64,000 bases of DNA from Verrucomicrobiota bacterium (GCA_019236675.1 JAFAIO010000144.1:34-64033), one strand, 5' to 3'; shown: positions 18,030 to 47,883, counted from the first letter of the stretch. Made by a program: numbers and translations. The notes: generated from the letters alone by a model not told the origin.

Positions 18030-18078
18030 CCTTTCACCTTTCACCTTTCACCTTTCACCTTTCACCTTTCACCTTTCA
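18030..18078. repeat. Heptanucleotide tandem array (CCTTTCA) x7.
   Basis: I counted seven perfect copies directly. Confidence 0.95.
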
Positions 18079-18113
18079 CTGCTCACTGCTCACTGCTCAC
18101 TGCTCACTGCTCA
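18079..18113. repeat. Heptanucleotide tandem array (CTGCTCA) x5 plus a partial copy; it contains the stop codon of the giant gene.
   Basis: I counted five perfect copies directly. The minus-strand TGA at 18104-18106 lies in the fourth unit. Confidence 0.95.
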
Positions 18114-21100
18114 CTGCCCCCTTCCTCCCCTCCATACCCCAGCACCTCGACCGTTATCAGCGACGGCGCGACTTCCTGCTCGGTTGCACTTGTCTGTTGT
18201 CTGGCCACTTCCTGCGCGACGCTGCTATTCGCTCCAGCACTATTGCTCGCGGCGATAGCGGCACTGACATTTGGCCCCACGATCGTCGGGAGGCCGACTG
18301 CGTGCCCTTGAACTTGAATGTTCTGCACATGCAAGATTTCCAGAGCCGCAAGTGTTAGATTGCCGGAAACTCGGATACCCGCTTCGCCGGCATCGATGAT
18401 CCCATTGGGTGCGAACAGATCCACGTTCCCCGGCGGCACCCCGGTCACGCCGACCAAGGTTGCGATCCCAGCGCCGGTTTGGGGTGTGGCGGGGATCTCC
18501 GTCATATTGACCCAGAGGTCATAGAGCGTATTGGGAGAACGCGTTACAATTGAGGTCTGTTTACCCTTTCCTGCATTAATGTCTCCGTGGCTCGACCAGA
18601 TCAAAATATCGCCACCCAATTCGGTGAATATGCGTGATTGCGCCACGACGACGCTCTGGTCAGCAACGATATTGATGTTTCCACCTTCCATAGTGATTAA
18701 CCCGGGTTCCGCCGTATCGGTCTGACCTGTCAAGTTTGGAACATCACTTTCGACGCCGAGGACCACTCCACCTCCCGGGACCATAAGGTTGATGTCACCG
18801 CCTTGTTCGGTCCGGATACGCGCATCATGGTAAAGCGTCAGCGACCCACTATAAGCCGTGGTTGGGACACCAGCTGCTACCGAACTACCAGGAAACAGGG
18901 TCTCGATGGCTTTATAACCCCGACTATAACCGACTTTCGTGGCAGCATACGATTCGCCGCCGGCTTTAATCTCATCGAAGTAAATTTCTGAAATGAGTGG
19001 CCATTGTTTAGCAGTCGATAATTGTTCGAAATCAGCTAACGCTTCGACTGAGGTCAGCGTCGAACCCTCGAGCTGATTCATGTAAGCCACGAGCCGAGGT
19101 AGATAATTCTTCTGGACCGACCCTGCGTTCGCCGGATTCAAATAGGTGTTAATAAACCCGGTGATATCCGCTCCGTTCAAGCCAACACCGACCGATATGT
19201 CGATGTTCGCACCGCCCGGGAGTAAGTAGTATGGATTGTCCGTGTTACCGACGCTTTCGATACCGATACCCTGGGTATTGTATTCGCCCGGCTCGGAGAC
19301 GATATTGCGTCCAGCCTGCACCACCAAAGTTCCCGGCCCCTCAACCCGGATATTGAAAACGTCAGTGCCTAAAATTCCGCCGGGTTGTGCGCTTGTGATA
19401 TCTCGTCCCGCTTCTACCAGCGAAGAATCGTTGGGACTCGTGTTTTCGATGTTAAACACCGGCTGAACAATATCTAGACCTGCCCTAATCAACACGCGTT
19501 CTGGCGTTGCCAGCGCCACACTGTTCAGGCTCCCCTCTACCGCATAAACAACCACGGTATGCGGATCATTAGACAGAACCAGATTGGATGGTGGCCCTAC
19601 AAACACATTACCGGCCGGTCCGACCGGTCCAATATATTCGTAAGCATCTAAAATCGTTCCCGGATAGTCGTAACCCGACGGGGCGGCAATCATGCCCAGA
19701 TCAGGAATACCGCTCGGTTGGAGGTAAACCCCATTTGACTCAATGCTCATATCCGCAGCCGTCATACTGACACCGAAGCCCCGGACATCTTGCTGCGCCA
19801 GAATACTCAGGCGGGCGGTTGGTGCAGGCAACGCAACGAGATAATCGCGGAAAGAGAGATCTCCCATGATCGAGCCGTTCGCGGCGACAAATGAAAGGAT
19901 GGGCGGTGCGAAACTACCTAGCACCGTTACGTCGCCACCTGCGGCGAATTCACTGAAAGAGCTGTTGGCAGTCATGCTGCCAAAAAACCCATAAGGTACC
20001 GGCGCATTGGCCGGATCCGTAAGGCCTGGGTTTAGTCCTTCCAAACCCCAGTACTGGGTCCAGCCACCTTCTTGCTCTGCTATGCCATCATTGTTCTGGC
20101 GGAGTGTACGCGTTGGGTCACCAATCAGCCCATAAATATTTTGTTGCGAATAAACGGTAAATTGGGAGTCGCTGATCATAAAATTGACGCGCTCCTGGAC
20201 CCCTTGGCTGTCTACGGCCGTACCCATATCTGCTGCTTCAATCAACGCGGTGCCTTTTCCGACGTAAAGATTGGCATCGTTCAGCGAGCCGCCGACGCTC
20301 AGATTGAGGTTACCACCGCCGGTGATAACTACCTGGTTGTTGCTACCGACTCGCCCCGTGGTTGGCAGGCTCACGTCTACGTTCGTCATGTTACCGCCAA
20401 CGCTGACGTTAACATTGCCGCCGCCGAGCGCACCTAGTCCCAAGAACCCCGCCACCGTTGGCGCGATGTCCGCACCTATGCTGTTTGCATAAGCCATGTC
20501 CTGGTAATAAGTACCGAAATTGATGAACCAGGTGGGACTGGCTTGGTTTGGTTCGGTCCAAAGCCAATAGGGATCGAGCTCGCTTCCGGCATAACCGCCG
20601 AGATTAGTCGATTGGCTGACCAAGCTGCCTTCGACCTTCACGGTTAGATTGCCGCCTCCGGTCGGATAACTTGGGTATAAAGCCGTCGGGTACGTATTGT
20701 CCCAGGGAACGCCGGGCGATTGATAGCCTAGGTAAGAATTGTTTCCGACCACCGACGAAATATATTGGCGGACCGGCATAGTAAATCCGGCGACCGCAGC
20801 CGACGGCTGGCCTGCGGTATAAATCCCGAATTCTGTCTGGATATCAATGTTGTCTGCGGCCGCCAGCTCTAGGTCGCCTGTTCCGGTGCGAACGACGCTT
20901 GGGATTTCTAAAGCGGCGCCAAGAGGCGAGGAACCGTTGCTATCGACCAGGTAGGGAGCATTGAAAATGACGGAACCCGGCTCGGGATCATTCGTGGAGG
21001 CGGCGGGCACGTTAATCGCCGCTATCAAACCGAGCGGGTCCGCAGCCTTTAAATCAGCGCCTCCAATCAAACGCAGGCTCCACGACGGACCACCCGCCAG

Positions 21101-24100
21101 GGGTGCAATGGCGAAGATCGGGCCGTCCGGAGAAACAACCGGCGCGCTAAATCCGTCGCTGAGGCTGCCGTTGATAATCAGATTGTCAGCCGCCCGTAGA
21201 GTTAGGACGCCCGGCGCTCCGTTAAACCGTAGACCTCCCAGATCGATGCCGTCGTTGTAAATGTAACTCGTACCAGCGTACGGATTGCCAGTGCTATTCG
21301 AAGGGTTAGTCAGAAGGGTCAAATTCCCGTTGCTGCGCAGTTCGATTCCCGGCAACAACTGATACGCAGGATTGCTCGCCAAACTACCCAGGCTGGCGTT
21401 GATTGCGCTGGCGTTGGCCATGAAATTGTTAGCATCAACCACCGCCTGGCTCGTTGTCGTCAGATTCTGATCCACATACGGATTGCTGGTTACATCATAG
21501 ACCGCTACCCCTTCCACGATCAGTTTGTCCGCTCCGGCGACAGTCACTCCCTGATTAGAAATGGCGACGCCAGTGTCATTGATTCGGGGTGCTCGCAACC
21601 AGACTTCATTGCCATTCGGCCCTGTCCCCGAAACGTCGATGATCGAGCCGCCGGCTAAAGTCAACGTCCCACTGCTCTTCCCATCCAGACCAAGAAACAC
21701 GATGCCGCCGGCTCCCTCCGTACTCGTGGCGGAAGCATCCAGAATTGCGGTACTTGCCAGCGTCAGATTGACCCCGGCGGTCAGACGGATGGTGCCGCCA
21801 CTCGGACCGCTGGCGTTGATTGTACCGTAAACCAAGACGCTACCGGTTGAGGCGGAAAGCTCGACATCTTGCGCAGTGATATTTCCGACCGAGATATCGC
21901 CGGTTGCCAATGTAAGCGATTGTTCACCGGTAAAAGTAGTAACGGCGCCAAGCAAACTGGAGGCATCACCGGAGTTTAGGTTCAAGATTACTTTGCCTCC
22001 GGTATACCCTTGCGGTGCAGTACCAAGAAAACTACCGCCTAGCTCTGCTGCCCCGTTCGGAGCGATTACCGTAAAAGTTCCTGCGTCACCGCCAGTATCG
22101 GAGTCTGCAACATCCAGATGCGAAACCGTGGTCGAAGAGAGCGAGCTGCCGCTGACATTGACAACGGCGCCCGGCGCGACAACCACGTTGCCATTGGTGG
22201 TTTGCAACGTGAGCGAACCGGCCGGCGCAATCCGAACCACATCAAAAAACGGGGTTATCTCACCGGCTACACTGATGTCCGCACCGCTGCCTAAGGCAAT
22301 ACCGTTCTGGGCCGTGAAGGTAATCGCTCCGGAGGGTAAAACGATCTTAGTATTCTCAACCATCGTCTGTGCATTTACGTTGAGTGTCGCTCCGCCTACG
22401 GCGACCGAAGTCACAGTGGTAACCGTCCCAGACGGGAGAAAGCTCACGGCGCCGCTGGCTATCAGTTGCGTGACCGCTCCAGCGGCATCATTCAGGTTTA
22501 ATCGAGAATTCACTGAAGTCACTAGCGGTGTTTGGATGGTCAGATTACCAAACACGTCGAAAGTCCCCGGGATGATCTCACCGTTGTAGTAAGTTGTACC
22601 GCCTACGGTCTCCCCGGCGTATGCGGTTGCTACCGCTTTACTGCTGGTGACGTCACCGGTCGCGACTAGCATGACGTTGCTAAATCCATTGAACGTCATA
22701 ATGCCTCCGCCTCCCAGGACAACTTCGGTCGCATCAATCGTAAATTGCCCCTGCCCCACGCCTGTACCGCTGGTGGCAAGCGTCGTACCTGTGCCTACCA
22801 ACGTTACTTTCCCTGCCGTAATGGTGACATTATCGCTAGCTCCACCAAACCCGTTGATGGTCGGTGTCTCCAAGGTCAGCTGGGACAGCAACGGCAACCC
22901 GGTGGCACTGTTAACAATGCCCAGACTGGCTGAGCCGTACACATCGATCTCTTGAGTCGCATTCAGGATGAGGTTGCCGGTCGGGACAACCCCATGACTC
23001 GGATCGCCTTGAGACAACGCCGCCAGCAGACTATTCGTTAATATCAAACCAGTGCTAGCCCCGGAACCAAAAGCAATGATCGGAGTCTGGACCGTGACGG
23101 TCTGACCGCCAAACCGCGCGTTAGGATCGATGCTGATATTTTGCGCACCCAAAAATAGCGTGCTGCCTGCGTAAATGCTGGCTCCCGGGTCGACAGTTAG
23201 GGAGGCACTCCCTTCGGTCTGATTAACCGGAAGCGGATTACCTGCTGCATCCAGTACCGCATCCGATACGAGAAGAAATGCACCCGGACTGGTGAGGGTT
23301 ATCGAGCCCAAGCTCGCTCCGGAAATTGGATCGAGTGGGAACTGCGCGGCGATGGGCGCATATCCAGTTGAATCGATTCGTGCGTTTGCCGCCACCGTAA
23401 TCCCTCCGGTAGCTGTTAACATGATCTCAGGCCCGCGTAACACCGCATTCGCATCAACAATAATCGTTTGAGCGGACGGAGTGATATCCACCGAGCTGTT
23501 GGTCGAATCGAAGTTCCGAACGCCGCCAAGTAGCAAGCTCTGTACGCCAAGTGCGTCTAGTTGACTGGCCTGAATGCCGACATAACCAGGCTGCGCGGTG
23601 TCGCCCGGACCCAGGATATCGAGGTTCCCCACCACGATATCAGCTTGCCCGCCTCGCGCTCCGGGTGCATACGAAAAGTTGGTAGCCCCTTGGAAAACAA
23701 AATTGCCGGTGTTAGTCGTGATATCGACTATAAGATGGCCGGCATCCCGCGCCAGATATGGCGTGACTGTGCTAGTAGAAGTTGCCAGCGCAGGAAAGAA
23801 ACTGTCACCCGTCGCTTGTGTGTACTCTGAATACTCTCTGAGGACGGATCCAGGCGACACCAGAAAGACCGACGGCAACGAGTCTTGTACGTCGGTGTTA
23901 GCTACCATCCGATAGCCGATCACTTGATAGGAACCGTCCGCCAACTCGAGATTAGTCAATCCGGCGGTTGTAGTCTGACCAGCTTCAACGCTCAGTTTGT
24001 AGGCTCCAGGCAACAATGCATAATGTCCAGGTAAAAGGGTGTAATCGCCGGCTAGCAATCCCGGAATAGCAGTCAAATAGACTTGATCCCCAACGGTAAG

Positions 24101-27100
24101 GTTGACCGGAGGAGCACCGCCCGCTGCCGGATTGCTACTCTGCATTACCGGGTCGATAGGAGCGTAGTGGTTACCCAGGCTCGGCAGAATGGCGAAGGTC
24201 TCCGTACCGTCCAACGTGTCGGTCGACCCGCCGGATCCACTGATGAACTGCGTTGCATAGATGTCGCCGCCGCCGGATTCATCGATCATCGCCGCCGGCT
24301 TACCACCGCTCGCCCCGGAGATGGTGACGTTTTGGCCGTAGAAGGCGATTAACTTCTGCGGTGGCGCAAATAGGGTGACGCCGTTATAGTTCCATTGATT
24401 AGCACCGAAGGTGGCGCCGTAAGGAATCAGAGTACCATCCGCCGATACCGACGTGATACTGCCGGGCAACAGGTTAATATTTGTTGCTTGGGTGCCGCTA
24501 CTGTTGGAGTTGCCAAATGTGATTTGGCCAAGCGGAGCCAATATAACTCCGCCTTGGTTAATCGTCGGTGCGACAATCTGCACGGCCCCGGCCGCGGACA
24601 GCGGTACATAGGGAGTTACCCCTGTTCTGGCGAAGGTGATAACGCTATTCATTCCGCTGGCCAGAATCTCAAATAGCGTATTGGCGCTAGTAGTGCTGGC
24701 GTTGGATTGCGGCTCACTCGTAACCGGATAAACCTCTGTCGCGGTGAAGTTGAGGTCTCCCAGCGTGGTTAGAAGGCTGGGACCGGCTAGAGCAGCGTTC
24801 ATTGGGACCAAGCGAATGTCACCGGTACTATTGAACGAGACCGTTTTAAAGCCGGCCAGGGAAACCGGATTCGTGGTGAGTGTGCCATTCTGGGAGGTGG
24901 TTGAATTGTACACGCCATTATAGAGGTACTGGTAAGTCGCTCCGCTGCGCAGGAGCCCTTCGATGTCGATCAGGTCAGCGTTGATATTCAGCACCGCGGT
25001 GCCTGCTACTGGCGTGGAGGTAGCGCTCGGTGGCGTAAAAGCGTCAAACCCAATACCGCCGATATACTCCGTAGTCCCCCCTCGTTGACCACCGCCGATA
25101 TTAACATACGGCGCGCTAAGGGTTACCACCGCGCCGTTGAGCGGAGCTACTACAGCGCCGTCACTAATTACGTCCGTCCCCACTTCGGACAAGGCAATAA
25201 CTGTGCCGTCGCCGATGTTGCGCGCGTTAATTCTTAAGCTCTGGGACAAGCTGAAGTTGACGTTACCGTTGAAAATGACCGCATCGACAGCGCCCAGCGA
25301 CGCGCCGCTAAATCCGCTGTTCATTATTTGATCAGCGCCGATGAAGAGTTCGCCCGCATAGGAGCTGGGGATAGCCTGACCAACCTGCAATCCGGTCGAC
25401 AGCATCGGATCGTTCTGGCTAATAACCAGGAGAAAAACCGGCTGCTCAAAGGTAGGATTGCTGGCGTTGCTGGTATAATCTCCAGCAACCTGATCAACGA
25501 TGAAATTACCTCCGGCGGATCTCGGCCCGCCACCCGCCGCCTTCATAGTGGCGTCGAACCACAGCCCCATCGATGCGGTCACGGCGATCGTGCCACCGTT
25601 ACTCGACACGCTGAGCGGATTTATTAGTTTCCCACTTAGATTCGGCTGAAGATATTGATAAAGTGTTCCGTTGGCTCCGGACACATCGATTAGCGCGCCG
25701 GCCTTTGCCACAACTGTTCCCAGCGGTATATCCACGGCCGGTTGATCTTCCGGATATGGATAATACGGTTCCAGATCCTGGTTAATATTAACTGTACCGC
25801 CATCCAGCAGAACATTTGTCACGCTCCCATTCGGGCCGGCAAATGACTGGATCAAGCCCGGGGCAAGCAATCTGGCATCGGAACCGATCCAGAGAGTCTG
25901 TTCGGCCGACGGGAATGGGGCATCGAACGGCTGTCCTGCAAACCCGGCACCGCCCACTGAAACAACTGGCCCGGATGATCCTGTGAGATCCAAGTCGATG
26001 GTGCCGGCCGGAGCGTAAATAGTTCCGTCAATGGTTAGTTGATGCCGCGCGTGTAACGCAATGGTCGCCTGTGGATCAGCATTAATGATCGCGCCATGGC
26101 CAAAGACGAGATCACCCACGAACGCGTCGGTTGCGCTCAACAGCAGGTTCACTGGGCCCGGGAGTTCGTAAGCAGGCGCTCGGCCGATTGGGGCGATGTT
26201 GGCCGGATCAGAGCCGCTAGGGGAGAAAACCGTGCCTCCATTCGGCACAAAATTGATAGCATGGAGCTCCAGGTCTGTGCCATTCGCGATAGTGACACCC
26301 TGGTAGCTATAAAGCGAATATTGACTGAAGCCGGTCGTCGTAAAGAAGCTTGGGCTGAGCAGAAGCGGCGTGGTTACAGAGGAAGGCGTGCCGCCTGTTT
26401 GGGTCATACCACCACCCTGGCTCGTGCTCCCTACTCCAGCTTGGCCGGATAATGGGGGAAGGGAACCACCGATTTGAATACCGGGGGTCACGATAGTCAG
26501 TTGCCCGCCCGCAGTGAAACCGAAGGAGCGTACGATACCATCTAAATACACCTGGGTCGGATAAGTCTCGGGGACGGTTGAACCTTGAGTCGGATCGGAT
26601 GAGCTAGTCTGGAGCGCATAGTCGTCCGCGAGAAGGGTGATATTGCCACCCGTGCCCACCGAGAGACCGTTGCTATTGGCCTTGATTTTGCCATTAATCT
26701 GAACCCAGCCGCCACTAGAAGCGTCAATCACCGCTCCGGTATCGATCCGCACATCATCATAGCTCTCGATCGTTACGTTCCCACCGTTGTAAAGCGTCGG
26801 GATCACTGCGCCTCGATCCACGAAATCGTTTACCCATAGACCACGCGTATCAATCACGCTGCCGGGCTCGAGGACGATGTCGTATGTCGGCGGGGTTAGT
26901 CGGGGTGCGGCATTGTTAGCATACAATGAAACTGAGCCAGCCGGAGCTATGAGGCTCCCGCTGATTGTGATCGCCGGCGTGGTAGTTGTGACTCCGGCTA
27001 CAGTAGTTGTGAGTCCGCCCGTGGCATTGATAGTGATTGATCCTCCCGGGGCCACTTGCACGCTGGCATTTCCAGTGACCTGAAAGGCGCCGGTTGAAAT

Positions 27101-29635
27101 CGAAATGCTGCCATAGCCAGCCTCGTCGAGTAAAGTAGCAGACAGATATAAGGTTTTCTGCCAATCATCCGGCAATGGTGAAGTATCGGAAGCAAAAGCA
27201 GGCGGTGCAACTACCGGTGCGATCACGACTTGGGTCGGGTTCACGGAACCGCCGATAGTTAGCGACCCTGCAGCTGGCAGCGTCGTAGCGGTACGCTGGA
27301 AGGGCCCGCTAACGGCGGAAGCATTGACTGTGGCATCAAGCTCCGAGTAGGTCGACTCAATGGTTAGGCTGCCCGCCGGTTTCCCTTCTACATACGCGCC
27401 TTCGTAGATTTGGTTCGGCAACATCGGGTTCGCATACGATTCGTTTACTCCCCACCGTGGATGGCTCACACCAAAATGATCTCCGATTGAAACATAAGTG
27501 AGGTCGGCGGGAGCGTTATTAACCGTGTAAAGATGTCCGTCAGCACCCAGCAACCACGTTACCGGAACGTACCCAGCTTGATGGTACAACCAGCCGCCCT
27601 CAATATCGATCGACGATTGCGGTCGCAAAATGGTGTCGCCACCCGCGTCAACCGCGATCGAGCCGCCGGTCGTGAGGCGTTGATCGATGGGCCGCTCGGT
27701 TAAACCGAGCCAGCCGGACACCTCGAGTAATCCGCCCGCCGTATATACTTGCTGGCCGGGCACCACCGTATTTAATCCATTGATGTTGACCCACACGTTT
27801 TGGCTTTCGAGGACGCCGTTTCGCTGGAGCGGCGAATCGCGCAACTCGTTGGCCCGCACATTCACTTGAACCGCGTCATCTTGCGCCGGAACCAACACAT
27901 CCCCAAGCCCGGAAACGTCGATTAAAGCGCCGTTATCCACCCAAACCCGGGAAGTATCCAGCGGACTAGTCGGATTCAAACTGCCGGGATTGTCATCGAC
28001 ATAGAGGTTCGTCCCGAGGCTGGAAACCTCGAGCGCAACGTGGCCGGAAGGTGCGAAAATCGTTGCGTTCGATAGCACATTGATCGTCTGGGCCTCTATA
28101 GAGACGATGGATTGCGGCTGAGTTTGCGTGTCCATCGCCATCGCCCCATTTTCCTCGGGCAAGACGGCGGTGATGCTGCCACTCGCCAAGGTCACGGTGC
28201 CGGTTTGGGTTGCAGAGAGGACGTAACCGGTACCTTGGTTATTAGCCACGATGGTCAGCCCGGCGCTCACCAATGTGCCGTTGTAGATCGGGCCGCCGCT
28301 GCCCGCAAATAGCGTGATCGAGCCGGCTTGATCAACCGACGTCGTTGCCGCTAATACCCCGGATTGACGAACGTTCATACCGGTCATCGTGATGTTGCCG
28401 GTTGACGCCTCGACGAGACCGTTGTTGGTCACTGTCCCGCCGTTGTCCATCAATACGGTTACGCCGCGGATGTTTGGGTTGGTACTGGGGGTTAAGTAAA
28501 CGTCGCTGGGAAACGTGTAGGCTTGAGGACTTGACCGGGGTGGCGACAGCCAGTGGTAGGACGAGACGCCGGGCACTCCACTCGAGCCAGCCGGCAGCAC
28601 GACGACGCTTGGTTGACCGGTGGCAGCCAGCACCGTTTGGCCATCCGGCGTGATGATCGAACCGTCATTCTCAACGTCGCTACCAAAAAGATAAATGCTT
28701 CCACCTCCTGTTTTCACGGAGGCTGGTGGGGATGTCTGGATCACGGCGCCCGCCTTGACAACGATATCCCCTGTCGGCCCCGAGTTGTTGACAAAGGTCG
28801 GAGGATTGATGACCGCATAGAAGCCGGCGATTGTGTATGGCTCTTGATTGATTATTCCGGTCAAAAATTGCGCATCCGTGATTCCGACTGCCGACCCGAT
28901 AAACGAATGCGTGTTTACCTGGCTGGAACCACCGAAGATGATCCCATTTTGGTTAATGATGTACACACTCCCTTGAGCGACGATCGAGCCGAGGATTTGG
29001 CTGGGTAAAGCGGCTGGATCCAATACGCGGTTCAATGCGATCCAGGTGTTACCGGAATTGCCGCCGCCGCTCTGATTGAAATACGCGGTTGTATTCTTGC
29101 CGACGTTAAACGTTTGCCAGTTCAGGATCGCTTTCTGCGCGGTTTGCTGGATCGTCACCATGGTCCGCCCATTCGCAACGGATTGAACCGGCTCGCTCGC
29201 TCCTACCCAATCCGCGTTTTGACCGGTCGCGACCTGCAATCCGCCCGGGATCAATCCATTAGGAACTTCCGGCAACTGTTGCTGCGGATTCTGCGGATTG
29301 ACCCCCAGATTGTTAGCACCCGCTAATGCCAAGTTGCGCGCTGCCTTTTGCATTACCTGCACCGACTGGATGGCTTGGTTCGTTCGCGTCAAAATATCGT
29401 TGGCATTGGTCGGCAGCTGCGACAATGCTGCCTGGTTTCCGCCGTAATAGGCAGCCGCGCCCACTGAGGAACTACCAGACGGACCGTCGTGAAGAATGTT
29501 CCCTGTCCCTGCTATACAGGCCTCTGCTAAGAAAAGGGATAGCACTACTAACGAAGTTCGCCTGAAGCTCGCTTCGGAACACCAACTGGAGCGCTGCCTC
29601 GCTTGCGAGGCCGGAGGGGCCGCCACCCTGCTCAC
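18104..29635 (-). CDS. Giant TpsA/FhaB-family exoprotein (about 3,840 aa from the GTG at 29635; the track ORF of 3,914 aa starts at a TTG at 29848). It has a TPS secretion domain, a long beta-helical repeat body and a DUF3739-like C-terminus.
   Basis: TPS-domain motifs: QKAILNWQTFNVGKNTTAYFNQ, WIALNRVLD and VYIINQNGIIFG. The body has thousands of residues of Gly/Asn/Thr-rich beta-helix-like repeats. C-terminal motifs: HGDINAGKGKQT and IDAGEAGIRVSGNLTLAA. No in-frame ATG precedes the signal-like segment RRTSLVVLSLFLAEACIA; candidate GTG starts are at 29635, 29626 and 29545. Confidence 0.85.
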   Translation of the reverse strand: MSRVAAPPASQARQRSSWCSEASFRRTSLVVLSLFLAEACIAGTGNILHDGPSGSSSVGAAAYYGGNQAALSQLPTNANDILTRTNQAIQSVQVMQKAARNLALAGANNLGVNPQNPQQQLPEVPNGLIPGGLQVATGQNADWVGASEPVQSVANGRTMVTIQQTAQKAILNWQTFNVGKNTTAYFNQSGGGNSGNTWIALNRVLDPAALPSQILGSIVAQGSVYIINQNGIIFGGSSQVNTHSFIGSAVGITDAQFLTGIINQEPYTIAGFYAVINPPTFVNNSGPTGDIVVKAGAVIQTSPPASVKTGGGSIYLFGSDVENDGSIITPDGQTVLAATGQPSVVVLPAGSSGVPGVSSYHWLSPPRSSPQAYTFPSDVYLTPSTNPNIRGVTVLMDNGGTVTNNGLVEASTGNITMTGMNVRQSGVLAATTSVDQAGSITLFAGSGGPIYNGTLVSAGLTIVANNQGTGYVLSATQTGTVTLASGSITAVLPEENGAMAMDTQTQPQSIVSIEAQTINVLSNATIFAPSGHVALEVSSLGTNLYVDDNPGSLNPTSPLDTSRVWVDNGALIDVSGLGDVLVPAQDDAVQVNVRANELRDSPLQRNGVLESQNVWVNINGLNTVVPGQQVYTAGGLLEVSGWLGLTERPIDQRLTTGGSIAVDAGGDTILRPQSSIDIEGGWLYHQAGYVPVTWLLGADGHLYTVNNAPADLTYVSIGDHFGVSHPRWGVNESYANPMLPNQIYEGAYVEGKPAGSLTIESTYSELDATVNASAVSGPFQRTATTLPAAGSLTIGGSVNPTQVVIAPVVAPPAFASDTSPLPDDWQKTLYLSATLLDEAGYGSISISTGAFQVTGNASVQVAPGGSITINATGGLTTTVAGVTTTTPAITISGSLIAPAGSVSLYANNAAPRLTPPTYDIVLEPGSVIDTRGLWVNDFVDRGAVIPTLYNGGNVTIESYDDVRIDTGAVIDASSGGWVQINGKIKANSNGLSVGTGGNITLLADDYALQTSSSDPTQGSTVPETYPTQVYLDGIVRSFGFTAGGQLTIVTPGIQIGGSLPPLSGQAGVGSTSQGGGMTQTGGTPSSVTTPLLLSPSFFTTTGFSQYSLYSYQGVTIANGTDLELHAINFVPNGGTVFSPSGSDPANIAPIGRAPAYELPGPVNLLLSATDAFVGDLVFGHGAIINADPQATIALHARHQLTIDGTIYAPAGTIDLDLTGSSGPVVSVGGAGFAGQPFDAPFPSAEQTLWIGSDARLLAPGLIQSFAGPNGSVTNVLLDGGTVNINQDLEPYYPYPEDQPAVDIPLGTVVAKAGALIDVSGANGTLYQYLQPNLSGKLINPLSVSSNGGTIAVTASMGLWFDATMKAAGGGPRSAGGNFIVDQVAGDYTSNASNPTFEQPVFLLVISQNDPMLSTGLQVGQAIPSSYAGELFIGADQIMNSGFSGASLGAVDAVIFNGNVNFSLSQSLRINARNIGDGTVIALSEVGTDVISDGAVVAPLNGAVVTLSAPYVNIGGGQRGGTTEYIGGIGFDAFTPPSATSTPVAGTAVLNINADLIDIEGLLRSGATYQYLYNGVYNSTTSQNGTLTTNPVSLAGFKTVSFNSTGDIRLVPMNAALAGPSLLTTLGDLNFTATEVYPVTSEPQSNASTTSANTLFEILASGMNSVITFARTGVTPYVPLSAAGAVQIVAPTINQGGVILAPLGQITFGNSNSSGTQATNINLLPGSITSVSADGTLIPYGATFGANQWNYNGVTLFAPPQKLIAFYGQNVTISGASGGKPAAMIDESGGGDIYATQFISGSGGSTDTLDGTETFAILPSLGNHYAPIDPVMQSSNPAAGGAPPVNLTVGDQVYLTAIPGLLAGDYTLLPGHYALLPGAYKLSVEAGQTTTAGLTNLELADGSYQVIGYRMVANTDVQDSLPSVFLVSPGSVLREYSEYTQATGDSFFPALATSTSTVTPYLARDAGHLIVDITTNTGNFVFQGATNFSYAPGARGGQADIVVGNLDILGPGDTAQPGYVGIQASQLDALGVQSLLLGGVRNFDSTNSSVDITPSAQTIIVDANAVLRGPEIMLTATGGITVAANARIDSTGYAPIAAQFPLDPISGASLGSITLTSPGAFLLVSDAVLDAAGNPLPVNQTEGSASLTVDPGASIYAGSTLFLGAQNISIDPNARFGGQTVTVQTPIIAFGSGASTGLILTNSLLAALSQGDPSHGVVPTGNLILNATQEIDVYGSASLGIVNSATGLPLLSQLTLETPTINGFGGASDNVTITAGKVTLVGTGTTLATSGTGVGQGQFTIDATEVVLGGGGIMTFNGFSNVMLVATGDVTSSKAVATAYAGETVGGTTYYNGEIIPGTFDVFGNLTIQTPLVTSVNSRLNLNDAAGAVTQLIASGAVSFLPSGTVTTVTSVAVGGATLNVNAQTMVENTKIVLPSGAITFTAQNGIALGSGADISVAGEITPFFDVVRIAPAGSLTLQTTNGNVVVAPGAVVNVSGSSLSSTTVSHLDVADSDTGGDAGTFTVIAPNGAAELGGSFLGTAPQGYTGGKVILNLNSGDASSLLGAVTTFTGEQSLTLATGDISVGNITAQDVELSASTGSVLVYGTINASGPSGGTIRLTAGVNLTLASTAILDASATSTEGAGGIVFLGLDGKSSGTLTLAGGSIIDVSGTGPNGNEVWLRAPRINDTGVAISNQGVTVAGADKLIVEGVAVYDVTSNPYVDQNLTTTSQAVVDANNFMANASAINASLGSLASNPAYQLLPGIELRSNGNLTLLTNPSNSTGNPYAGTSYIYNDGIDLGGLRFNGAPGVLTLRAADNLIINGSLSDGFSAPVVSPDGPIFAIAPLAGGPSWSLRLIGGADLKAADPLGLIAAINVPAASTNDPEPGSVIFNAPYLVDSNGSSPLGAALEIPSVVRTGTGDLELAAADNIDIQTEFGIYTAGQPSAAVAGFTMPVRQYISSVVGNNSYLGYQSPGVPWDNTYPTALYPSYPTGGGNLTVKVEGSLVSQSTNLGGYAGSELDPYWLWTEPNQASPTWFINFGTYYQDMAYANSIGADIAPTVAGFLGLGALGGGNVNVSVGGNMTNVDVSLPTTGRVGSNNQVVITGGGNLNLSVGGSLNDANLYVGKGTALIEAADMGTAVDSQGVQERVNFMISDSQFTVYSQQNIYGLIGDPTRTLRQNNDGIAEQEGGWTQYWGLEGLNPGLTDPANAPVPYGFFGSMTANSSFSEFAAGGDVTVLGSFAPPILSFVAANGSIMGDLSFRDYLVALPAPTARLSILAQQDVRGFGVSMTAADMSIESNGVYLQPSGIPDLGMIAAPSGYDYPGTILDAYEYIGPVGPAGNVFVGPPSNLVLSNDPHTVVVYAVEGSLNSVALATPERVLIRAGLDIVQPVFNIENTSPNDSSLVEAGRDITSAQPGGILGTDVFNIRVEGPGTLVVQAGRNIVSEPGEYNTQGIGIESVGNTDNPYYLLPGGANIDISVGVGLNGADITGFINTYLNPANAGSVQKNYLPRLVAYMNQLEGSTLTSVEALADFEQLSTAKQWPLISEIYFDEIKAGGESYAATKVGYSRGYKAIETLFPGSSVAAGVPTTAYSGSLTLYHDARIRTEQGGDINLMVPGGGVVLGVESDVPNLTGQTDTAEPGLITMEGGNINIVADQSVVVAQSRIFTELGGDILIWSSHGDINAGKGKQTSIVTRSPNTLYDLWVNMTEIPATPQTGAGIATLVGVTGVPPGNVDLFAPNGIIDAGEAGIRVSGNLTLAALEILHVQNIQVQGHAVGLPTIVGPNVSAAIAASNSAGANSSVAQEVARQQTSATEQEVAPSLITVEVLGYGGEEGGSEQ

Positions 29636-29664
29636 CGTCGGCCTCGCAAGCGAGGCAGCGCTCC
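29588..29664. repeat. Repeat family B, compact copy: perfect 26-bp inverted repeat with a 25-nt loop.
   Basis: GGAGCGCTGCCTCGCTTGCGAGGCCG (29588-29613) is the exact reverse complement of 29639-29664. The flanking 2 bp also pair. Confidence 0.9.
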
Positions 29665-29857
29665 AGGACTGCACTTGGTGAGCGGAGTACCCCCCATCTT
29701 TAGTAGAGAACGCGAGTTCTAGTTTTCTATGGTTACAATCTCGCGAAGTCTCGGCTACCTGCTTCGAGCGTCGTAAAAAGTTCCCCACACCGCACTTAAT
29801 GCGGAATTCTTCTGCGAATGGGGCCAGAAATTTTCCGCCTCGGGGCAACCCTTGTTT

Positions 29858-29878
29858 TGCTATCTGCTATTTGCTATT
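29858..29878. repeat. Heptamer array TGCTATC-TGCTATT-TGCTATT.
   Basis: Read directly. A two-unit copy lies at 13357-13370 within a longer shared block. Confidence 0.8.
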
Positions 29879-29907
29879 CCGGGCGGGCCTCAGGCGAGCC
29901 CGAGCGG

Positions 29908-32811
29908 TTACTTCTCGCTCAACGAATCTGGCGTAAGTTGCTGCAAGTTATTCTCGGCCCTAGAAATTTCTCTCGCCAGGTCTCCACGCAACAAGATCGC
30001 TTTGCCATCTCGGGCGCGATACAAGACCTGAAGACCACGCTCGATGTATTTGCGCCCCTCTTCTTTCTCGCCCGTCTTTGCGAGCGAGTTTCCATAGCTG
30101 GCCAGCACTTCCCCATACAACGCGCTCTCTGGCGGGAAATCTCTAACTCGAATGTTCTGCTCCGCTAATTCCAAAGCCTGCTTGAACCAGCGACACGCTT
30201 CTTTGGAGTCCGCGGTTGCTTCCGCTACCTCTCCTTGGCCCGCGTAGAAACCGGCAAGTAGGAAGCGCTGGTCTGGTGAGTCCACATTTTGCCTGGCGAC
30301 TTCTTCTGTGAGTGGGGCTAAAACTCGCGAGTTAATTTGTTTAGCGTTCTCGAAATCCCCGGATCTTGTGTAGCACTCCATCAGGTCGAGTCCGACCATC
30401 CCGAGCCACTCCTTGGCCCAGTGAGGAGGTCTAGGCTGGTGGTTTACCTTTTCGGCCAAATCAACTGCTTCCCTCAGTAATCTGGCCGCTTCCTGATATT
30501 GGCCCTGGTCGATCAATAAAAGACCGTAGTTGTTTAGACCCACTATCAAGTCTTGCTCGAAATAGGCATTATTCGGATCGACGGTGCACAACCTCCGAAG
30601 GACCGCTATCGCCTGATCAGCGAGATCCGATTTCTCGTGGGTCGGATCGAGGCAGAACAGCAAACAGCCCCAACGCCCAATCGCTCGTTCTGAACGAAAT
30701 TTGAGAGCGGCATTATCGGCGGCGTGCTCAGCGGCATCACGGCGAATAGCCAGCGCTGTTCGAATAGGCGCCTGAAACGCGGCAGCATCTCCGCGATCGA
30801 GCTGACGCACACCTAAAGCTTCCAAGCTGCTCGCGTAGGAATCGATGATATCGGGATCATCGGGCGCCAATTTGTACGCCCGTTGTCCGTAGGCTACGGC
30901 TTCATTCAAGAAGCGCAGCGTATCCTCTGCGTTCGCGGCCCGGCCAAGCATGTAGCCTTTCAGCGCAAGAGAATCGCAAAGGCTAGCCTGCAACAATGCT
31001 TGAGCGCTACTCGGCAACCCGCTGCTCGTCTCTAAGGAGCGCAGTCTGACAAATGCCTCGTCTAAAACTTTGAGTGATGCTGCCGACTCACCTGCTTTTC
31101 CAAAAGCCCGCGCCTCTTCATAAACTGCTTTCGCTAGTACCAGCTTGTCGCCAAGGTCCGTAGATAGCAGGCACAAAGTCCTGGCCTGGGCTTCCGCCTT
31201 TTCGGCTCGTTGAATGGCCGTGTGGCCGTCACCCATTTCTTCCAGAGCGCGCGCCAAAGTGATTTCGGTTTGCACCTTCGCTCGGATCTGTCCCGGACTG
31301 CGGGCTGGATCACCGTCGCCACGGCTAGTCGAATCGATTCGATCGAACACCTGGACCGCCTCCTTCAGCACTTCAAGCCGATGTTCCACCGGAGCAGCCA
31401 TTGTTTCCAATCGAGTGGATAGAACGCCGATCATGTTGCGGGCCGAAGAAGCCGCCAACTCACGCTGTTGCAGTGCGTAATCACGTTCCTTCCGAACTGC
31501 GCGATAGGAAGCCAATGTTATCCCGAGTGCAATCATTCCGGCTACAACTGTTATGGACGTGGCAATCGTTGCCGTCGGATGGCGCTGGATTAATCTCCGC
31601 ATTCGATAGCCCCAACTCTCCGGACGAGCGGCCACTGGGCGGCACTCCAGGAAATTCTGGAGGTCATCGACGAAATGCTCGACGCTCTTGTATCGGTCAG
31701 CCGGCTGTTTCTGCAGCGCCTTTGATATGATGGCTTCGAGATCAGTTCTTCGTGATTTGGGAATGCTGATACTTGTTTCTTCCGATCGTACCGGCAGCCG
31801 TTTAGGTTCACCTTTACAAATCCTTTCTAACAGTTCGAATCCACCGGCAGCCTCGTTTTCCGTAATTGGGCTGAACGGATGAGAACCGGCAACGAGCTCA
31901 AACAAAATGATCCCGAGCGAAAAAATGTCGGCGGCGGTGGTAATCTCCTCGCCATGAATCTGCTCAGGGCTGCTGTACCGAGGCGTTAATGGCCCGAGCC
32001 CGATCGTACGGTCCTGAGGGCCAGACTCTTGCTCAGACACGAGCGTTTTTGCGATCCCGAAGTCAATCAACCGCGGGGTGCCGTCGCTAGTAACAAGAAT
32101 ATTTGAAGGCTTAAGGTCCCGATGGACCACCAGGTTTTTGTGCGCATACGAAACCGCGGAACAGACCTTACAGAACAGTTCGAGAATCTGGTACAGATCG
32201 CGGCCCTTATTCCGACAGTAAGCCTTGATCGGTTCGCCGTCCACGTACTCGATGGCGAGGTAAGGCAATCCGTTCTCCAGGGCGCCTCCTTCTAAGAAAC
32301 GAGCAATGAAAGGATGGTTCAACCGCGCCAGAATCCGGCGTTCTCTCCGGAACCGGGAGATAAACAGTCGAGGATCGATCGGCTGGCGCATCACCTTGAT
32401 TGCTGCGCGTTGGATCGAGAGTCCATCGTTGTCGAAGGAGCGTTCAGCTAGATAGACGGTGCCCATTCCGCCCCGAGAAATCTCACGTAGAACGCGCCAA
32501 GAGTCGATCAGGGTTCCCGGTTGAAGAGTCTCTGGCGGTGCCAGTTGGTCATCTGATTCTTCGCTCTCGTCGAGAAGCCCAAGCTCGGATTGCAAAGCAG
32601 GAGTTTCTAGAAATTGGTCCTCCGAATTGGCATACCTTAGTAATGAAAGGAGCTCCTCCGCTAACTCAGGGTTCTGAGCGCGCCTTTCATTTATCCAGGT
32701 GACGCGCTCACTCGGGTGCATCTCGACTGCTTCCGCGAACAAGCTCCTTAACTCCACGGATTCAAATGAGAGTCCACTCTGCGGGTAACCGTCTGAAAGA
32801 TGGCTGCGCAT
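29908..32811 (-). CDS. Transmembrane Ser/Thr protein kinase (STK3) with a long TPR-like extracytoplasmic or C-terminal region.
   Basis: It has kinase motifs HRDLKPSNILV, DFGIAK and SPEQ, and one TM segment (ATIATSITVVAGMIALGITLASY). Helical repeats extend to the C-terminus. It starts 17 nt after the sigma3 stop. Confidence 0.9.
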   Translation of the reverse strand: MRSHLSDGYPQSGLSFESVELRSLFAEAVEMHPSERVTWINERRAQNPELAEELLSLLRYANSEDQFLETPALQSELGLLDESEESDDQLAPPETLQPGTLIDSWRVLREISRGGMGTVYLAERSFDNDGLSIQRAAIKVMRQPIDPRLFISRFRRERRILARLNHPFIARFLEGGALENGLPYLAIEYVDGEPIKAYCRNKGRDLYQILELFCKVCSAVSYAHKNLVVHRDLKPSNILVTSDGTPRLIDFGIAKTLVSEQESGPQDRTIGLGPLTPRYSSPEQIHGEEITTAADIFSLGIILFELVAGSHPFSPITENEAAGGFELLERICKGEPKRLPVRSEETSISIPKSRRTDLEAIISKALQKQPADRYKSVEHFVDDLQNFLECRPVAARPESWGYRMRRLIQRHPTATIATSITVVAGMIALGITLASYRAVRKERDYALQQRELAASSARNMIGVLSTRLETMAAPVEHRLEVLKEAVQVFDRIDSTSRGDGDPARSPGQIRAKVQTEITLARALEEMGDGHTAIQRAEKAEAQARTLCLLSTDLGDKLVLAKAVYEEARAFGKAGESAASLKVLDEAFVRLRSLETSSGLPSSAQALLQASLCDSLALKGYMLGRAANAEDTLRFLNEAVAYGQRAYKLAPDDPDIIDSYASSLEALGVRQLDRGDAAAFQAPIRTALAIRRDAAEHAADNAALKFRSERAIGRWGCLLFCLDPTHEKSDLADQAIAVLRRLCTVDPNNAYFEQDLIVGLNNYGLLLIDQGQYQEAARLLREAVDLAEKVNHQPRPPHWAKEWLGMVGLDLMECYTRSGDFENAKQINSRVLAPLTEEVARQNVDSPDQRFLLAGFYAGQGEVAEATADSKEACRWFKQALELAEQNIRVRDFPPESALYGEVLASYGNSLAKTGEKEEGRKYIERGLQVLYRARDGKAILLRGDLAREISRAENNLQQLTPDSLSEK

Positions 32812-32828
32812 TTCAGAATCCTATGTCT

Positions 32829-33464
32829 CTACTGCGTCAGATTCAGTCGCCGCTTAAGCCAGGCCTTGGCGAACTGCCAATCTCGTTTAACCGTCCGGGC
32901 AGATACGCCGAGAATCTGTGCGGTTTCTTCGACGGTCATTCCGACAAAAAAACGAAGCTCAACCAGGCGACTCAAATCGTCGCCATGGTGAGCCAATTCC
33001 TTGAGTGCCGAGTCCAGTTCTACAAGGTCGACCGACTGGCTATTTGGCTCGGCCAAATCAACAAGGCCGGATTCAAACGAAATCTTCGTCGCGTTACCGC
33101 CACGTTTCCAGGCATTTCGGTTGCGTGCGCGATCCACAAGTATTTGGCGCATCAACCGGCTCGCGACCGCAAAAAAATGCGAACGATTGTTCCAATCGAT
33201 ATTCTGGGCACCGACAATCCTGAGATAGGCCTCGTGAACAAGCTCTGTCGGCTGTAACGACTTGGCGGCCCAATCCTTACCTAGGGCATCGTCAGCGAGC
33301 TGTCGAAGCTGGTCGTAAATTCGCTCGGTCAGACTTTCCAGAGCCGAAGCGTCGCCTTCTCTCCAGCGCCCGAGGAGCTCTGTGATCTCGGTGTGAGTTT
33401 CGTTGGATGAGGGTGGCTGTTTATCAGACAGACTCCGACGCGATCCGTGCAGACAGGCTTGCAT
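32829..33464 (-). CDS. ECF sigma factor (sigma3) resembling the TIGR02999-type family.
   Basis: Diagnostic segments are ITELLGRWREGDASALESL, WNNRSHFFAVASRLMRQILVDRARNRNAWKRGG and MTVEETAQILGVSARTVKRDWQFAKAWL. Confidence 0.85.
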   Translation of the reverse strand: MQACLHGSRRSLSDKQPPSSNETHTEITELLGRWREGDASALESLTERIYDQLRQLADDALGKDWAAKSLQPTELVHEAYLRIVGAQNIDWNNRSHFFAVASRLMRQILVDRARNRNAWKRGGNATKISFESGLVDLAEPNSQSVDLVELDSALKELAHHGDDLSRLVELRFFVGMTVEETAQILGVSARTVKRDWQFAKAWLKRRLNLTQ

Positions 33465-33573: not shown

Positions 33574-33763
33574 GTGGAGCGTTGCCTTGCTTCCGCCTTC
33601 GCCAAGCCTACGGCGCGACAGGTCGCGAGGCCGATGCGGTAGGCACCCGTGGAGCGGTTGCCGCGCTTGCGAGGCCGATAAGCGGTCGGCAACCGTGGAG
33701 CGCTGCCGCGCTTGCGAGGCCGATAAGCGGTCGGCAACCGTGAAGCGCTGCCTCGCTTACGCC
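33574..33763. repeat. Tandem amplification (units of 45-46 bp) of the left arm of repeat family B.
   Basis: The units are at 33649-33694, 33695-33739 and a partial one at 33740-33763. A degenerate unit lies at 33574-33648. Confidence 0.8.
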
Positions 33764-33935
33764 CACGTACACGGGTAATCATAAGGGCCGGGAGGCTGTT
33801 TCCCCTTCGGCATCTTCAACCCGCCGCGCGGGTGCAATTCGGACTTGGCGCAATACTCCACACTACAATACTCCATTACTCCGCGTGGCCGGAATCGAGG
33901 ACCTATCCGCCGTAGCTTTCGCTTTATGCTCAAGG

Positions 33936-33961
33936 TCGGCCTCGCAAGCGAGGCAGCGCTC
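33936..33961. repeat. Right arm of repeat family B (CGGCCTCGCAAGCGAGGCAGCGCTCC).
   Basis: It is identical to 29639-29664. Confidence 0.85.
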
Positions 33962-34010
33962 CACAGAAGGCTGAGGCCGACCCGAACCAGGCAACCGCCG
34001 GCCCGCCGGG

Positions 34011-36104
34011 TTACCGTTGGGTCGTGAGAATCAACGGGACGGACTCCGTTGCACCCGGCGGATTAACGGAATAAACCCGGATATAGTACGACGTACCCGG
34101 CAATAGACCGGTCAGCTCAACATGAGTTCCAGCGGAACAATAGTGGGTGAAATTAAAGGCGTTACTCATATCGTCCGCTTCGACCACATACCCGGTCGCA
34201 TTCTTGGCTGCGGTCCAACTAACGCGAGCGGTTGTCTTGCCAGCAGTCCCGTGAACCCCGGTTACCGGGTCGGGTGTCCGTCCGTTGTGAGGATGGAACA
34301 ATAGGAGATTGTGCACCAGATCTTCACCCCACATCGATCCCCACCCCGTGCAATTGTCATAGCCACCACCGGCGGTGTATCCGGGTATACCATAGAGATT
34401 AACGTTCCCGTTAGTGCCATCCGTGATATCGTCATAGCCGTCGGTTTCTAAAGCCTGATAATAAAGAAGCGGATTAACGAACCCGACCCGGCCCAGCCCG
34501 ATCGTGCGCCAGGCCGAGTCAACGATACTGATATAGCTGGCCCAAATCGGCGAAGAAGCGCTTGTCCCACCGACTTGCTGCCAGCCACCGTTCAATGCCG
34601 AATAAACCGAAACACCGGTTACGGGACTCGCGACTGCCGCCACATCCGGCATGTTTCGCATGGTGGAAGATCCGCCATTAAACGAGGCAACGGAGACCAG
34701 TTGACCTTGCGAATCAGTAAAGAGTTGCCAAGACGGAATCGCCCAGTAAGCACTCACTCCGCCGCCGGTCGCTCCGGCGCCGGCGCCGAGCAAGTTCCAA
34801 ACGTCTTCGAGCTCGTAAACCGAGTCCGGTCCAGTGTAAAGGCTCGTGCCGCCGACAGAGGTTACATAAGGCTGTGCACCAGGATCGGAAACATTGAGAC
34901 CTGAACCGGTGCGACCGTACGCACCCTGATCGCCGGCACTCACGAAAACAGCTTGTCCCTGGGCGGCGAGCTGCTTCAGCACCTTACCTTCAGCCGCCAT
35001 CTGCGTATTGCCCATCATTACCTCATCTGCTCCGTACGAAATACTAATGACCTGGGCCGCGTCGTCATTGGCCATCGCCACCAGCGAATCCAGCAAGGCC
35101 ACCGGGAACGAATCTTGGCCGTCCTCGTACACGATCACTTTTTTAACCTTCGGATTGATACCGATGATCATGTCAATGTCCAAAACGGCCTCGAGCTCAA
35201 CCCCCGGATCGTCAATGCCGCCGCCATATCCGTTTACGTTACGGTCTTCGACCGGAACCGCCGGAAGATGGTTCTGAGCCTCATATTTGGCCACGTCCGT
35301 CGGATCGAAACCACCTTGTTCAAAAACCGCTACCGTCTCTATCCCGCTCTGGCTTAACTCCAGGGGAACGTTATAAGCAATCCGCAAATCTTTTGCATCA
35401 TAGGCGCCTCCAGGTCCATTACCCCCGGCAGTATCGCTGCGAACACCCGGTAACAACCGATCTAACTCCTGGTTCTGGCCCCGCTTATACACCTGTACCA
35501 ATGGAGCAGACTGGATGTAATTGGAAAAACCGACGATCCCAGTGATGCGTCCTTGCAATTCACTGGGAACGCTCGGCTTTACCCTCGGAGAATAAAAAAT
35601 TCTGCCGTCCGCTGCTTGATAGTTATTAATTTCAACACCAAAAAGCTTTTCCAACTGCCCGATTGAACCTCGCACTGTTAACGTCGTTCGCGCAATGTTC
35701 CGTTCCTGGCTCAACAGTCCGTTAGTTTTTGCCCAGTTTTCCACGGCTGAATAATTCGTCACGCTTGGCCCGAACTTCGCACCGTATTCCTCGGGAGTAA
35801 GGTACCTCCCATATAATGGATCGTTTGGCGTCGATACTCGCTGGACAAATTCATCTGCGCCGTTTTCGTCCGAAAGCGGCAGCAGGAGGATAATATTAAT
35901 TAACTTATCCGTTTCCGTGTGCGAGACCAGTTTGGACGTGGAAAGAGCGGCTGGGAGATCAATCGTTATCTCGTTCGCGTCGTTCGTGGCTGCCAACGCG
36001 AGTTTGGATGAGCTCACTAAGAGAGCTCCGGACACGCAGCAATAAAACGTCATTGCTGTAAAACAGGCGGACACACGCCAGCTGCTGAAGGGGTAATTGC
36101 GCAT
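34011..36104 (-). CDS. Secreted S53 sedolisin-type peptidase with an FN3-like tail; third gene of a three-peptidase operon.
   Basis: Motifs are VELEAVLDIDMIIG, SAGDQG and GGTSASSPIW, with a pro-kumamolisin-like prodomain. It starts 12 nt after the upstream gene. Confidence 0.9.
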   Translation of the reverse strand: MRNYPFSSWRVSACFTAMTFYCCVSGALLVSSSKLALAATNDANEITIDLPAALSTSKLVSHTETDKLINIILLLPLSDENGADEFVQRVSTPNDPLYGRYLTPEEYGAKFGPSVTNYSAVENWAKTNGLLSQERNIARTTLTVRGSIGQLEKLFGVEINNYQAADGRIFYSPRVKPSVPSELQGRITGIVGFSNYIQSAPLVQVYKRGQNQELDRLLPGVRSDTAGGNGPGGAYDAKDLRIAYNVPLELSQSGIETVAVFEQGGFDPTDVAKYEAQNHLPAVPVEDRNVNGYGGGIDDPGVELEAVLDIDMIIGINPKVKKVIVYEDGQDSFPVALLDSLVAMANDDAAQVISISYGADEVMMGNTQMAAEGKVLKQLAAQGQAVFVSAGDQGAYGRTGSGLNVSDPGAQPYVTSVGGTSLYTGPDSVYELEDVWNLLGAGAGATGGGVSAYWAIPSWQLFTDSQGQLVSVASFNGGSSTMRNMPDVAAVASPVTGVSVYSALNGGWQQVGGTSASSPIWASYISIVDSAWRTIGLGRVGFVNPLLYYQALETDGYDDITDGTNGNVNLYGIPGYTAGGGYDNCTGWGSMWGEDLVHNLLLFHPHNGRTPDPVTGVHGTAGKTTARVSWTAAKNATGYVVEADDMSNAFNFTHYCSAGTHVELTGLLPGTSYYIRVYSVNPPGATESVPLILTTQR

Positions 36105-36116
36105 ATTCTCTTGTTG

Positions 36117-47881: not shown

Positions 47882-47883
47882 TT

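Follow-up and report, generated by a model that had tools for sequence, protein, structure and literature searches.

REPINs, known from Pseudomonas and Enterobacteria, are doublets of REP (repetitive extragenic palindromic) sequences that form hairpins (Bertels & Rainey 2011, PMC3116915). Short repeats with some of the same features include the BOX elements of Streptococcus pneumoniae, the Rickettsia palindromic elements (RPE) and the Correia elements (CREE/NEMIS) of Neisseria, whose hairpins are cut by RNase III, changing expression (PMC10969869). Here we analyse an 81-nt inverted repeat, E1, at 29586-29666 of a 64,000-nt stretch of DNA from a Verrucomicrobiota bacterium (GCA_019236675.1, JAFAIO010000144.1:34-64033; hereafter the window), near the 5' end of a giant minus-strand open reading frame (ORF) for a TpsA-like protein. 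E1 belongs to a dispersed repeat family, is absent from the orthologous genes and folds, by prediction, into a very stable hairpin. We consider it likely to be a compact doublet of a REP/REPIN-like, non-autonomous family of palindromic repeats of one soil Verrucomicrobiota lineage.

The family shares with REP/REPIN elements a short palindromic core set in a unit that spans about 28 nt, is highly conserved and is present in dozens of chromosomal copies per genome, mostly extragenic. Its doublets are likewise almost exclusively inverted, with conserved ends, a less conserved spacer and predicted hairpins, and it too occurs in ordered tandem clusters and as decayed singletons, with no target-site duplication. 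It differs from them in its Verrucomicrobiota host, in having no REP-associated tyrosine transposase (RAYT, a Y1 transposase) linked to it in the fetched loci and the window, in a doublet spacing of 8 to 441 nt rather than one fixed length, and in units that bear several alternative 3' modules. Like the BOX elements, it combines distinct end modules with a unit of about 45 nt in variable tandem number, has stable RNA structures and often lies near genes, but there is no sequence relationship, and BOX modules A, B and C keep a set order, whereas all modules of this family reuse one and the same arm. Terminal inverted repeats that would yield a long double-stranded RNA hairpin when co-transcribed in a 5' leader are shared with the Correia elements, whose TA target duplication, uniform interior of about 100-150 bp, integration host factor (IHF) sites and promoters were not seen in the family. 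As with RPEs, a palindromic repeat is tolerated in frame within genes (the adenylation, or A, domains of nonribosomal peptide synthetases (NRPS) and possibly the n-region of the TpsA-like protein); RPEs, however, are about 150 bp long and commonly inserted in ORFs, whereas coding copies are a small minority here and translation of the copy in the TpsA-like gene is putative. Finally, the 28-nt arms supply the terminal inverted repeats of a classical miniature inverted-repeat transposable element (MITE), but neither a target-site duplication nor a uniform interior derived from a parent insertion sequence was found.

The preliminary description of the window had offered two accounts of E1: a translational control in which the repeat occludes the Shine-Dalgarno (SD) sequence of the giant gene, and a REP/MITE-like repeat that the ORF has absorbed. 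The second is well supported, by the high copy number and dispersal of the family, by the absence of the repeat at all 82 orthologous TpsA loci that we compared, and by arms that lie in frame in NRPS A domains. Dedicated SD occlusion finds no comparative support, as the hairpin is absent from the same 82 loci.

The E1 hairpin

Inverted-repeat analysis of the window delimited two arms, 29586-29613 and 29639-29666, each 28 nt long and 100% complementary to the other, with 25 nt between them; the 26-bp perfect repeat, two flanking pairs and 25-nt loop reported earlier are thereby confirmed. In the sense of the mRNA (minus strand), the 5' arm, CTGGAGCGCTGCCTCGCTTGCGAGGCCG (29639-29666), is the start of a truncated unit of the kind that we call type A below and contains GAGG at 29645-29642, 6 nt ahead of GTG 29635, as had been described. 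The loop, ACGGTGAGCAGGGTGGCGGCCCCTC (29614-29638), also reads as previously given and carries GTG 29635-29633 and GTG 29626-29624, both in the frame of the giant ORF; it is itself partly base-paired in the minimum-free-energy fold. The 3' arm (29586-29613) encodes ...ASQARQRS in the same frame. On the plus strand, 29586-29628 is a complete type B unit, consisting of an arm and a GAGGGGCCGCCACCC tail, and in E1 as a whole this type B unit meets, head to head, an inverted type A unit of which just the first 38 nt are present.

Folded as an 81-nt minus-strand RNA, E1 gives a single hairpin of -72.5 kcal/mol (z-score -9.5 against shuffles), and its stem is still the dominant fold within 181 nt of context. 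A chance origin can be ruled out: a 23-nt arm pattern has five matches in the window at no more than 3 mismatches, against 0.00 expected from 100 shuffles. Nor is E1 an assembly artefact, because an independent megahit short-read contig (L174, ENA ERZ27313815) is 100% identical to the window over 29480-29920, with the repeat and a nearby G6 run included.

Units, hosts and positions of the repeat family

The arm of the family is 28 nt long, with the sequence GTGGAGCGCTGCCTCGCTTGCGAGGCCG, and in many copies it is extended by GGGGTCGCCACCC. Every arm contains an inner hairpin of 6 bp closed by a tetraloop (GCCTCG-CTTG-CGAGGC), which two copies preserve through C-G to T-A double changes. An exact scan with the 19-nt core against one genome per species (596 Gb) recovered more than 88 loci, and about 75 of the 80 listed come from related metagenome-assembled genomes (MAGs). 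Among the matches listed, about 30 loci each belong to the Verrucomicrobiota MAGs JAFAHI01 and CAVXLD01, with fewer in JAFAZK01, in a MAG of the Chthoniobacterales and in others that bear the labels Planctomycetota, Acidobacteriota and Actinomycetota. Of the listed hits, five fall in unrelated taxa and agree with the 19-mer core alone, about the number that we calculate to be expected by chance in 596 Gb.

Spread across phyla was considered and rejected. The loci labelled Actinomycetota (L028 and L075, from CAWBNT01) and Planctomycetota (L007, L058 and L072, from JABDGM01) have a GC content of 54-57% and encode proteins 81-88% identical to those of Verrucomicrobiota loci, with which L028 is also syntenic; because this GC range and protein identity fit Verrucomicrobiota, the labels of both MAGs look wrong. 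Two Acidobacteriota-labelled loci (L030 and L045, CAVSNX01) have a GC content in this range, with best protein matches of just 41-48%. On these comparisons we attribute the family to one soil Verrucomicrobiota lineage, with some record labels doubtful. An origin in plasmids, phages or viruses found no backing, with no match in plasmids, phages or IMG/VR, and no Rfam family was matched by the window at the gathering threshold or by seven loci in E-value mode.

For a census of arms we used 88 fetched loci and the window, a sample drawn almost entirely from related Verrucomicrobiota MAGs. It contains 164 arms that differ from GTGGAGCGCTGCCTCGCTTGCGAGGCCG at no more than 5 positions, and none when the arms are shuffled. 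Some arms stand singly, and others form tandem arrays with a period of 42-46 nt or convergent inverted pairs. Among adjacent arms within 600 nt of each other, 45 pairs are convergent (+-), none is divergent (-+) and 20 are direct (16 ++ and 4 --); since inverted pairs are exclusively convergent, GTGGAGCGC always lies at the outer ends.

Modules of alternative kinds follow the arm. In type A, the arm is succeeded by TGGTGAGCAAGG, about 35 variable nt and GCGCTCT; in type B, which makes the tandem arrays of 42-46-nt period, by AAGGGGTCGCCACCC; and in another by a GGTCGGAACC tail and then GGAGGGGAGCCGCTTT. A further variant of the unit has a 33-nt insert in the hairpin loop. Compact doublets like E1 are also found at L046 (75 nt) and L015 (36 nt), and these compact forms fold at -62 to -72 kcal/mol. 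Doublet spacing in general is broad, with modes near 157, 176-200 and 342 nt, and type A units are more than 90% identical at their ends and unalignable between copies in their interiors. We considered whether the type A unit of about 90 nt is a structured RNA in its own right and discarded the idea: RNAalifold on 50 copies supports the inner hairpin alone, with no covariation in the variable part. No flanking direct repeat was found just outside the arms in 40 of 44 composite elements.

Besides E1, the window holds two more family elements, E2 (33574-33964) and E3 (46877-47079), each with arms on both strands. E2 comprises four plus-strand units (a long variant with the 33-nt loop insert at 33574-33633, then 33649-33677, 33695-33722 and a truncated unit at 33740-33761), a spacer and an inverted minus-strand arm at 33937-33964. 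E3, in the divergent intergenic region between an S53 peptidase gene and a sigma factor gene, has a degenerate plus-strand arm with a type B tail (46877-46903) and an inverted minus-strand arm (47052-47079). The recurrence of the arms asserted in the preliminary description was thus recovered in full, as the minus-strand arms at 33937-33964 and 47052-47079, the degenerate plus-strand arm at 46877-46903 and the plus-strand array at 33574-33761. The composition of the E2 array varies among otherwise identical assemblies: at 33634-33739 the window has two short 45-nt units, and L171-L173 have one long unit with the 33-nt hairpin-loop insert. Either rapid turnover and strain polymorphism or the difficulty of assembling such an array from short reads, with collapse of units, could account for this difference.

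Where the copies lie relative to genes was assessed with crude ORF calls. Fourteen elements fall in divergent, 14 in convergent and 20 in tandem intergenic gaps, and 29 inside an ORF, most of these being spurious short ORFs or N-termini extended too far. When only ORFs of 150 codons or more are considered, the closest gene end is the 3' end for 40 elements and the 5' end for 34, with 12 more within the first 150 nt of a longest-start ORF. The preliminary description had placed all copies in 5' regions and had named a random distribution without such a bias as a refutation of its proposal. The placement is correct for the three elements of the window; across the family there is no 5' bias, the outcome so named, and the 5' location is therefore not a family property.

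Some copies lie within genuine genes. Three homologous NRPS genes carry an in-frame arm in the AMP-binding_C domain (...KRLVAYFTT[I/V]GLASEAALH...), one protein having it twice. These arms (L008 151-178; L029 4612-4639 and 7903-7930; L050 2581-2608) encode GLASEAALH in successive modules, between the KRLVAY motif and LPxYMVP, so arms can turn into coding sequence.

E1 and the start of the giant TpsA-like gene

The giant ORF occupies 18104-29848 on the minus strand and has a two-partner secretion (TPS) domain at residues 224-415. The h-region of its signal peptide, LVVLSLFLAEACIAG, directly precedes TGNIL, the G codon of which is at 29509. No gene for a TpsB-type transporter was detected among the window ORFs scanned against Pfam. 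An arm is present in none of 82 orthologous TpsA loci (459 kb; L089-L094, at 80-87% identity, and 76 more). Upstream of the signal peptide, a block of about 70 nt (29761-29833, minus strand; TTTTGGCCC...GATTACGCATTTAGCTCGGTGTGGGGA...CGACGCTCG) is kept ahead of orthologous TpsA genes whatever the upstream gene may be, and is a candidate promoter or leader. L089-L094 share this block and the end of the signal peptide with the window, and the roughly 200 nt in between, around E1, are unalignable. On this comparison E1 is lineage-specific, and it lies within the leader of the gene, between the conserved upstream block and the h-region.

Five in-frame GTG codons could start the protein. GTG 29788, within the block, would give a leader of 94 aa; GTG 29674 (29672-29674, minus strand), just upstream of E1, one of 56 aa; the loop codons GTG 29635 and GTG 29626, leaders of 43 and 40 aa; and GTG 29545 a leader of 13 aa, which would lose the RR n-region common to all orthologues. 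The loop GTGs had been proposed as the sole in-frame starts that give a charged n-region, which does not hold, as GTG 29674 and GTG 29788 share the frame too and no stop intervenes. Leaders of the closest orthologues are 28-39 aa long, and more distant homologues have been called with leaders of 37-99 aa. In L090-L093 the gene starts at an ATG 28 codons ahead of TGNIL (MEYCICK[VT]SR...), and the block GTG is out of frame; in L089 and L094, as in the window, it is in frame, and L089 and L094 can start there, with leaders of 32 and 39 aa.

The loop GTGs yield the leader length nearest to that of the orthologues, and the gene caller applied to the independent contig L174 placed the start at the position equal to 29635. 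Translation would most likely begin at a loop GTG, with its leader of 40-43 aa against 28-39 aa in the closest orthologues, and we give this assignment about an even chance on sequence grounds. Initiation upstream (GTG 29674 or 29788), with E1 read through, much like an RPE, as an in-frame insertion of 27 aa in the n-region, is a somewhat less likely second choice. Between the 3' arm of E1 and RR there is no start codon, so that a signal peptide with a charged n-region requires translation of the 3' arm; this arm, at least, would now be coding.

A start in the loop would leave both the GAGG and the initiation codon sequestered in the hairpin. Their occlusion is physically plausible on the predicted fold, and initiation would then depend on co-transcriptional access, translation of an upstream ORF or cleavage by RNase III. 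Could the hairpin have been kept for this purpose, so that synthesis of the giant adhesin-like protein would have to await opening of the stem by ribosomes on the upstream ORF, by RNase III, by temperature or by a helicase? In favour of this, the GAGG lies within the 28-bp stem, 6 nt before GTG 29635, the loop codons give the leader length closest to that of the orthologues, and the sequence is identical in two assemblies. An out-of-frame upstream ORF of 21 codons (29632-29697, minus strand) runs from ATG 29697 across the 5' arm to a TGA (29634-29632) that overlaps the GTG 29635 start as GTGA, and mRNA hairpins of Correia elements are known substrates of RNase III (PMC10969869). However, a position conserved among orthologues, as a dedicated cis-regulatory RNA would have, is seen at 0 of 82 loci, the hairpin being missing from every one, and the Rfam search gave no match. 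GAGG and GGTGA come as part of each arm or type A unit of the family, so that finding them in E1 does not speak for design. Nor does the family show a 5' bias, and ATG 29697 lacks an evident SD. We regard such a putative dedicated, or exapted, gate as improbable, and the specific version in which ribosomes on the 21-codon ORF melt the 5' arm and terminate on GTGA, or RNase III cuts the stem, as slightly more so. Two other roles for ATG 29697 were discarded: global alignment does not support it as the homologue of the ATG start of the orthologues, and a homopolymer error hiding an in-frame ATG 29697 is ruled out by the G6 run, which is identical in the independent short-read assembly.

The open frame through E1 raises the possibility that the repeat is an in-frame coding insertion resembling an RPE, with translation starting at GTG 29788 or GTG 29674 and 27 residues (WSAASLARPTVSRVAAPPASQARQRS) added to a long n-region, the RNA hairpin being a mere translational speed bump. 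The 81 nt of E1 amount to exactly 27 codons without a stop in the ORF frame, which stays open all the way from 29848 to the h-region. The window, L089 and L094 all have the block GTG in frame, and the peptides that it begins are alike (VGNFLRR, VGIFARR and VGKFLR). Family arms are translated within NRPS modules, and distant homologues have leaders called at 37-99 aa. Yet the block is out of frame or closed by a stop in L090-L093, where the gene starts at the ATG 28 codons before TGNIL, and it is thus more likely a promoter or leader. Moreover, the element has two open frames out of three, such that an insertion would be both in frame and open by chance roughly 1 time in 5, and a leader of 94 aa far exceeds the 28-39 aa of the closest orthologues. 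We hold this account to be possible and rather doubtful.

The position of a GC-rich hairpin in a leader, followed on the mRNA strand by UUGGUGUU, is also compatible with an attenuator or terminator that ends transcripts early or insulates the gene from read-through of the sigma-kinase operon. In other bacteria, REP-type elements are known to terminate transcription or to stabilise RNA, and the 28-bp stem of E1 is followed on the minus strand by TTGGTGTT, in which T fills 5 of 8 positions. As a U-tract this is weak and interrupted, though, and T-runs do not follow other copies of the family. A scan for consensus terminators, which considers loops of 3-8 nt only, reported nothing at E1, and a charged n-region in the signal peptide would require the 3' arm to be coding. 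We judge a terminator very unlikely.

Several observations weigh against reading E1 as a REP/REPIN-like repeat. The interiors of the doublets differ while their ends are near-identical, unlike those of a recently amplified MITE, and the ends might therefore be under selection for some function in the host. No transposase appeared among the 25 most frequent Pfam families of 100 ORFs lying within 400 nt of arms, a listing outside which single-member hits fall, nor in another five ORFs next to arms or between them, nor in the 29 longer window ORFs scanned; the search for a transposase or RAYT covered the fetched loci and the window, not whole genomes. All-against-all clustering of 348 neighbouring ORFs likewise returned ordinary paralogues only (ABC transporters, permeases, sigma-54 activators and hydrolases) and no transposase, and no insertion sequence with the same ends as the family arms was seen among the neighbouring ORFs examined. 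An exact empty site for E1 was not definable in the alignments with L089-L094, because the roughly 200 nt around it do not align with the orthologues. The start codon of the giant gene is one that we infer, and the length of 81 nt (27 codons), together with a 93-codon open frame from GTG 29788, is mildly unexpected for non-coding DNA.

With these points weighed, a REP/REPIN-like doublet is the explanation that we favour for E1, which would then have been acquired by transposition or recombination and not selected as a regulator. Any effect of E1 on translation would most simply be the by-product of a selfish or structural repeat rather than the work of a dedicated switch, because E1 is one copy of an abundant family and is absent from every related gene examined.

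Neighbouring repeats and significance of the family

Other repeats accompany the family in these genomes. Tandem heptamer tracts, for example (GTGAAAG)n, (GTGATTG)n, (GGCGTTT)n, (GTAAGCA)n and (GCTATTG)n, number 72 in 686 kb of these Verrucomicrobiota sequences and often form inverted pairs, 60-250 nt apart, between genes. They are found in the window at 18027-18125, 47080-47125 and 29858-29885 and elsewhere at, for instance, L035 4270-4378, L022 855-1004 and L077 1608-1730; in the window, the giant ORF has its stop codon inside one such tract, (TTTCACC)7(TGCTCAC)5. An association of these tracts with the arms was rejected, as 6 of 164 arms represent no enrichment. A second dispersed repeat, TCGGAGGGGCGTTGCATTCCGC, lies at 2598-2619, 47915-47936 and 48369-48395 of the window and also in L018, L059 and L060; in the window, two copies separated by 432 nt make up an inverted pair of 27 nt upstream of the kinase gene at 48480-51290, and in other genomes the repeat recurs near arms. 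An inverted repeat of 54 nt and 85% identity containing TAGCCGCGTAGCGGCGACATATTTGTAGCCC (57275-57328 and 57468-57521) probably represents a third family, a similar sequence adjoining an arm in the Chthoniobacterales MAG (L065, about 2290-2340).

The genes of the window include three pairs encoding an extracytoplasmic function (ECF) sigma factor and a Ser/Thr kinase with tetratricopeptide repeats (TPR), at 13447-17102, 29908-33464 and 46985-51290, among which is a paralogous pair spaced 34 kb apart with about 73-75% DNA identity. Six genes for pro-kumamolisin (S53) or subtilase-like peptidases lie within 5230-9550, 34011-41828 and 44555-46972.

REP/REPIN-type repeats are well studied in Proteobacteria and appear, as far as we found, to be undescribed in Verrucomicrobiota: a literature search found no published account of REP/REPIN-like elements in this phylum, and no paper containing the core sequence. 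The family extends existing concepts to a new phylum without changing them. In practice it offers a marker for strain typing and accounts for assembly breaks in soil MAGs, and it is a source of annotation errors because gene callers put start codons inside or upstream of the repeats. Its copies indicate that coding sequence can take up such repeats, in an NRPS A domain and, putatively, in the n-region of a signal peptide. E1 itself provides a natural test case, a perfect 28-bp hairpin around a candidate start codon, for the effect of a repeat of this kind on the expression of a secreted protein of 3,900 residues. Were E1 to prove an exapted gate, the family would constitute a portable module for the control of expression at the RNA level in Verrucomicrobiota.

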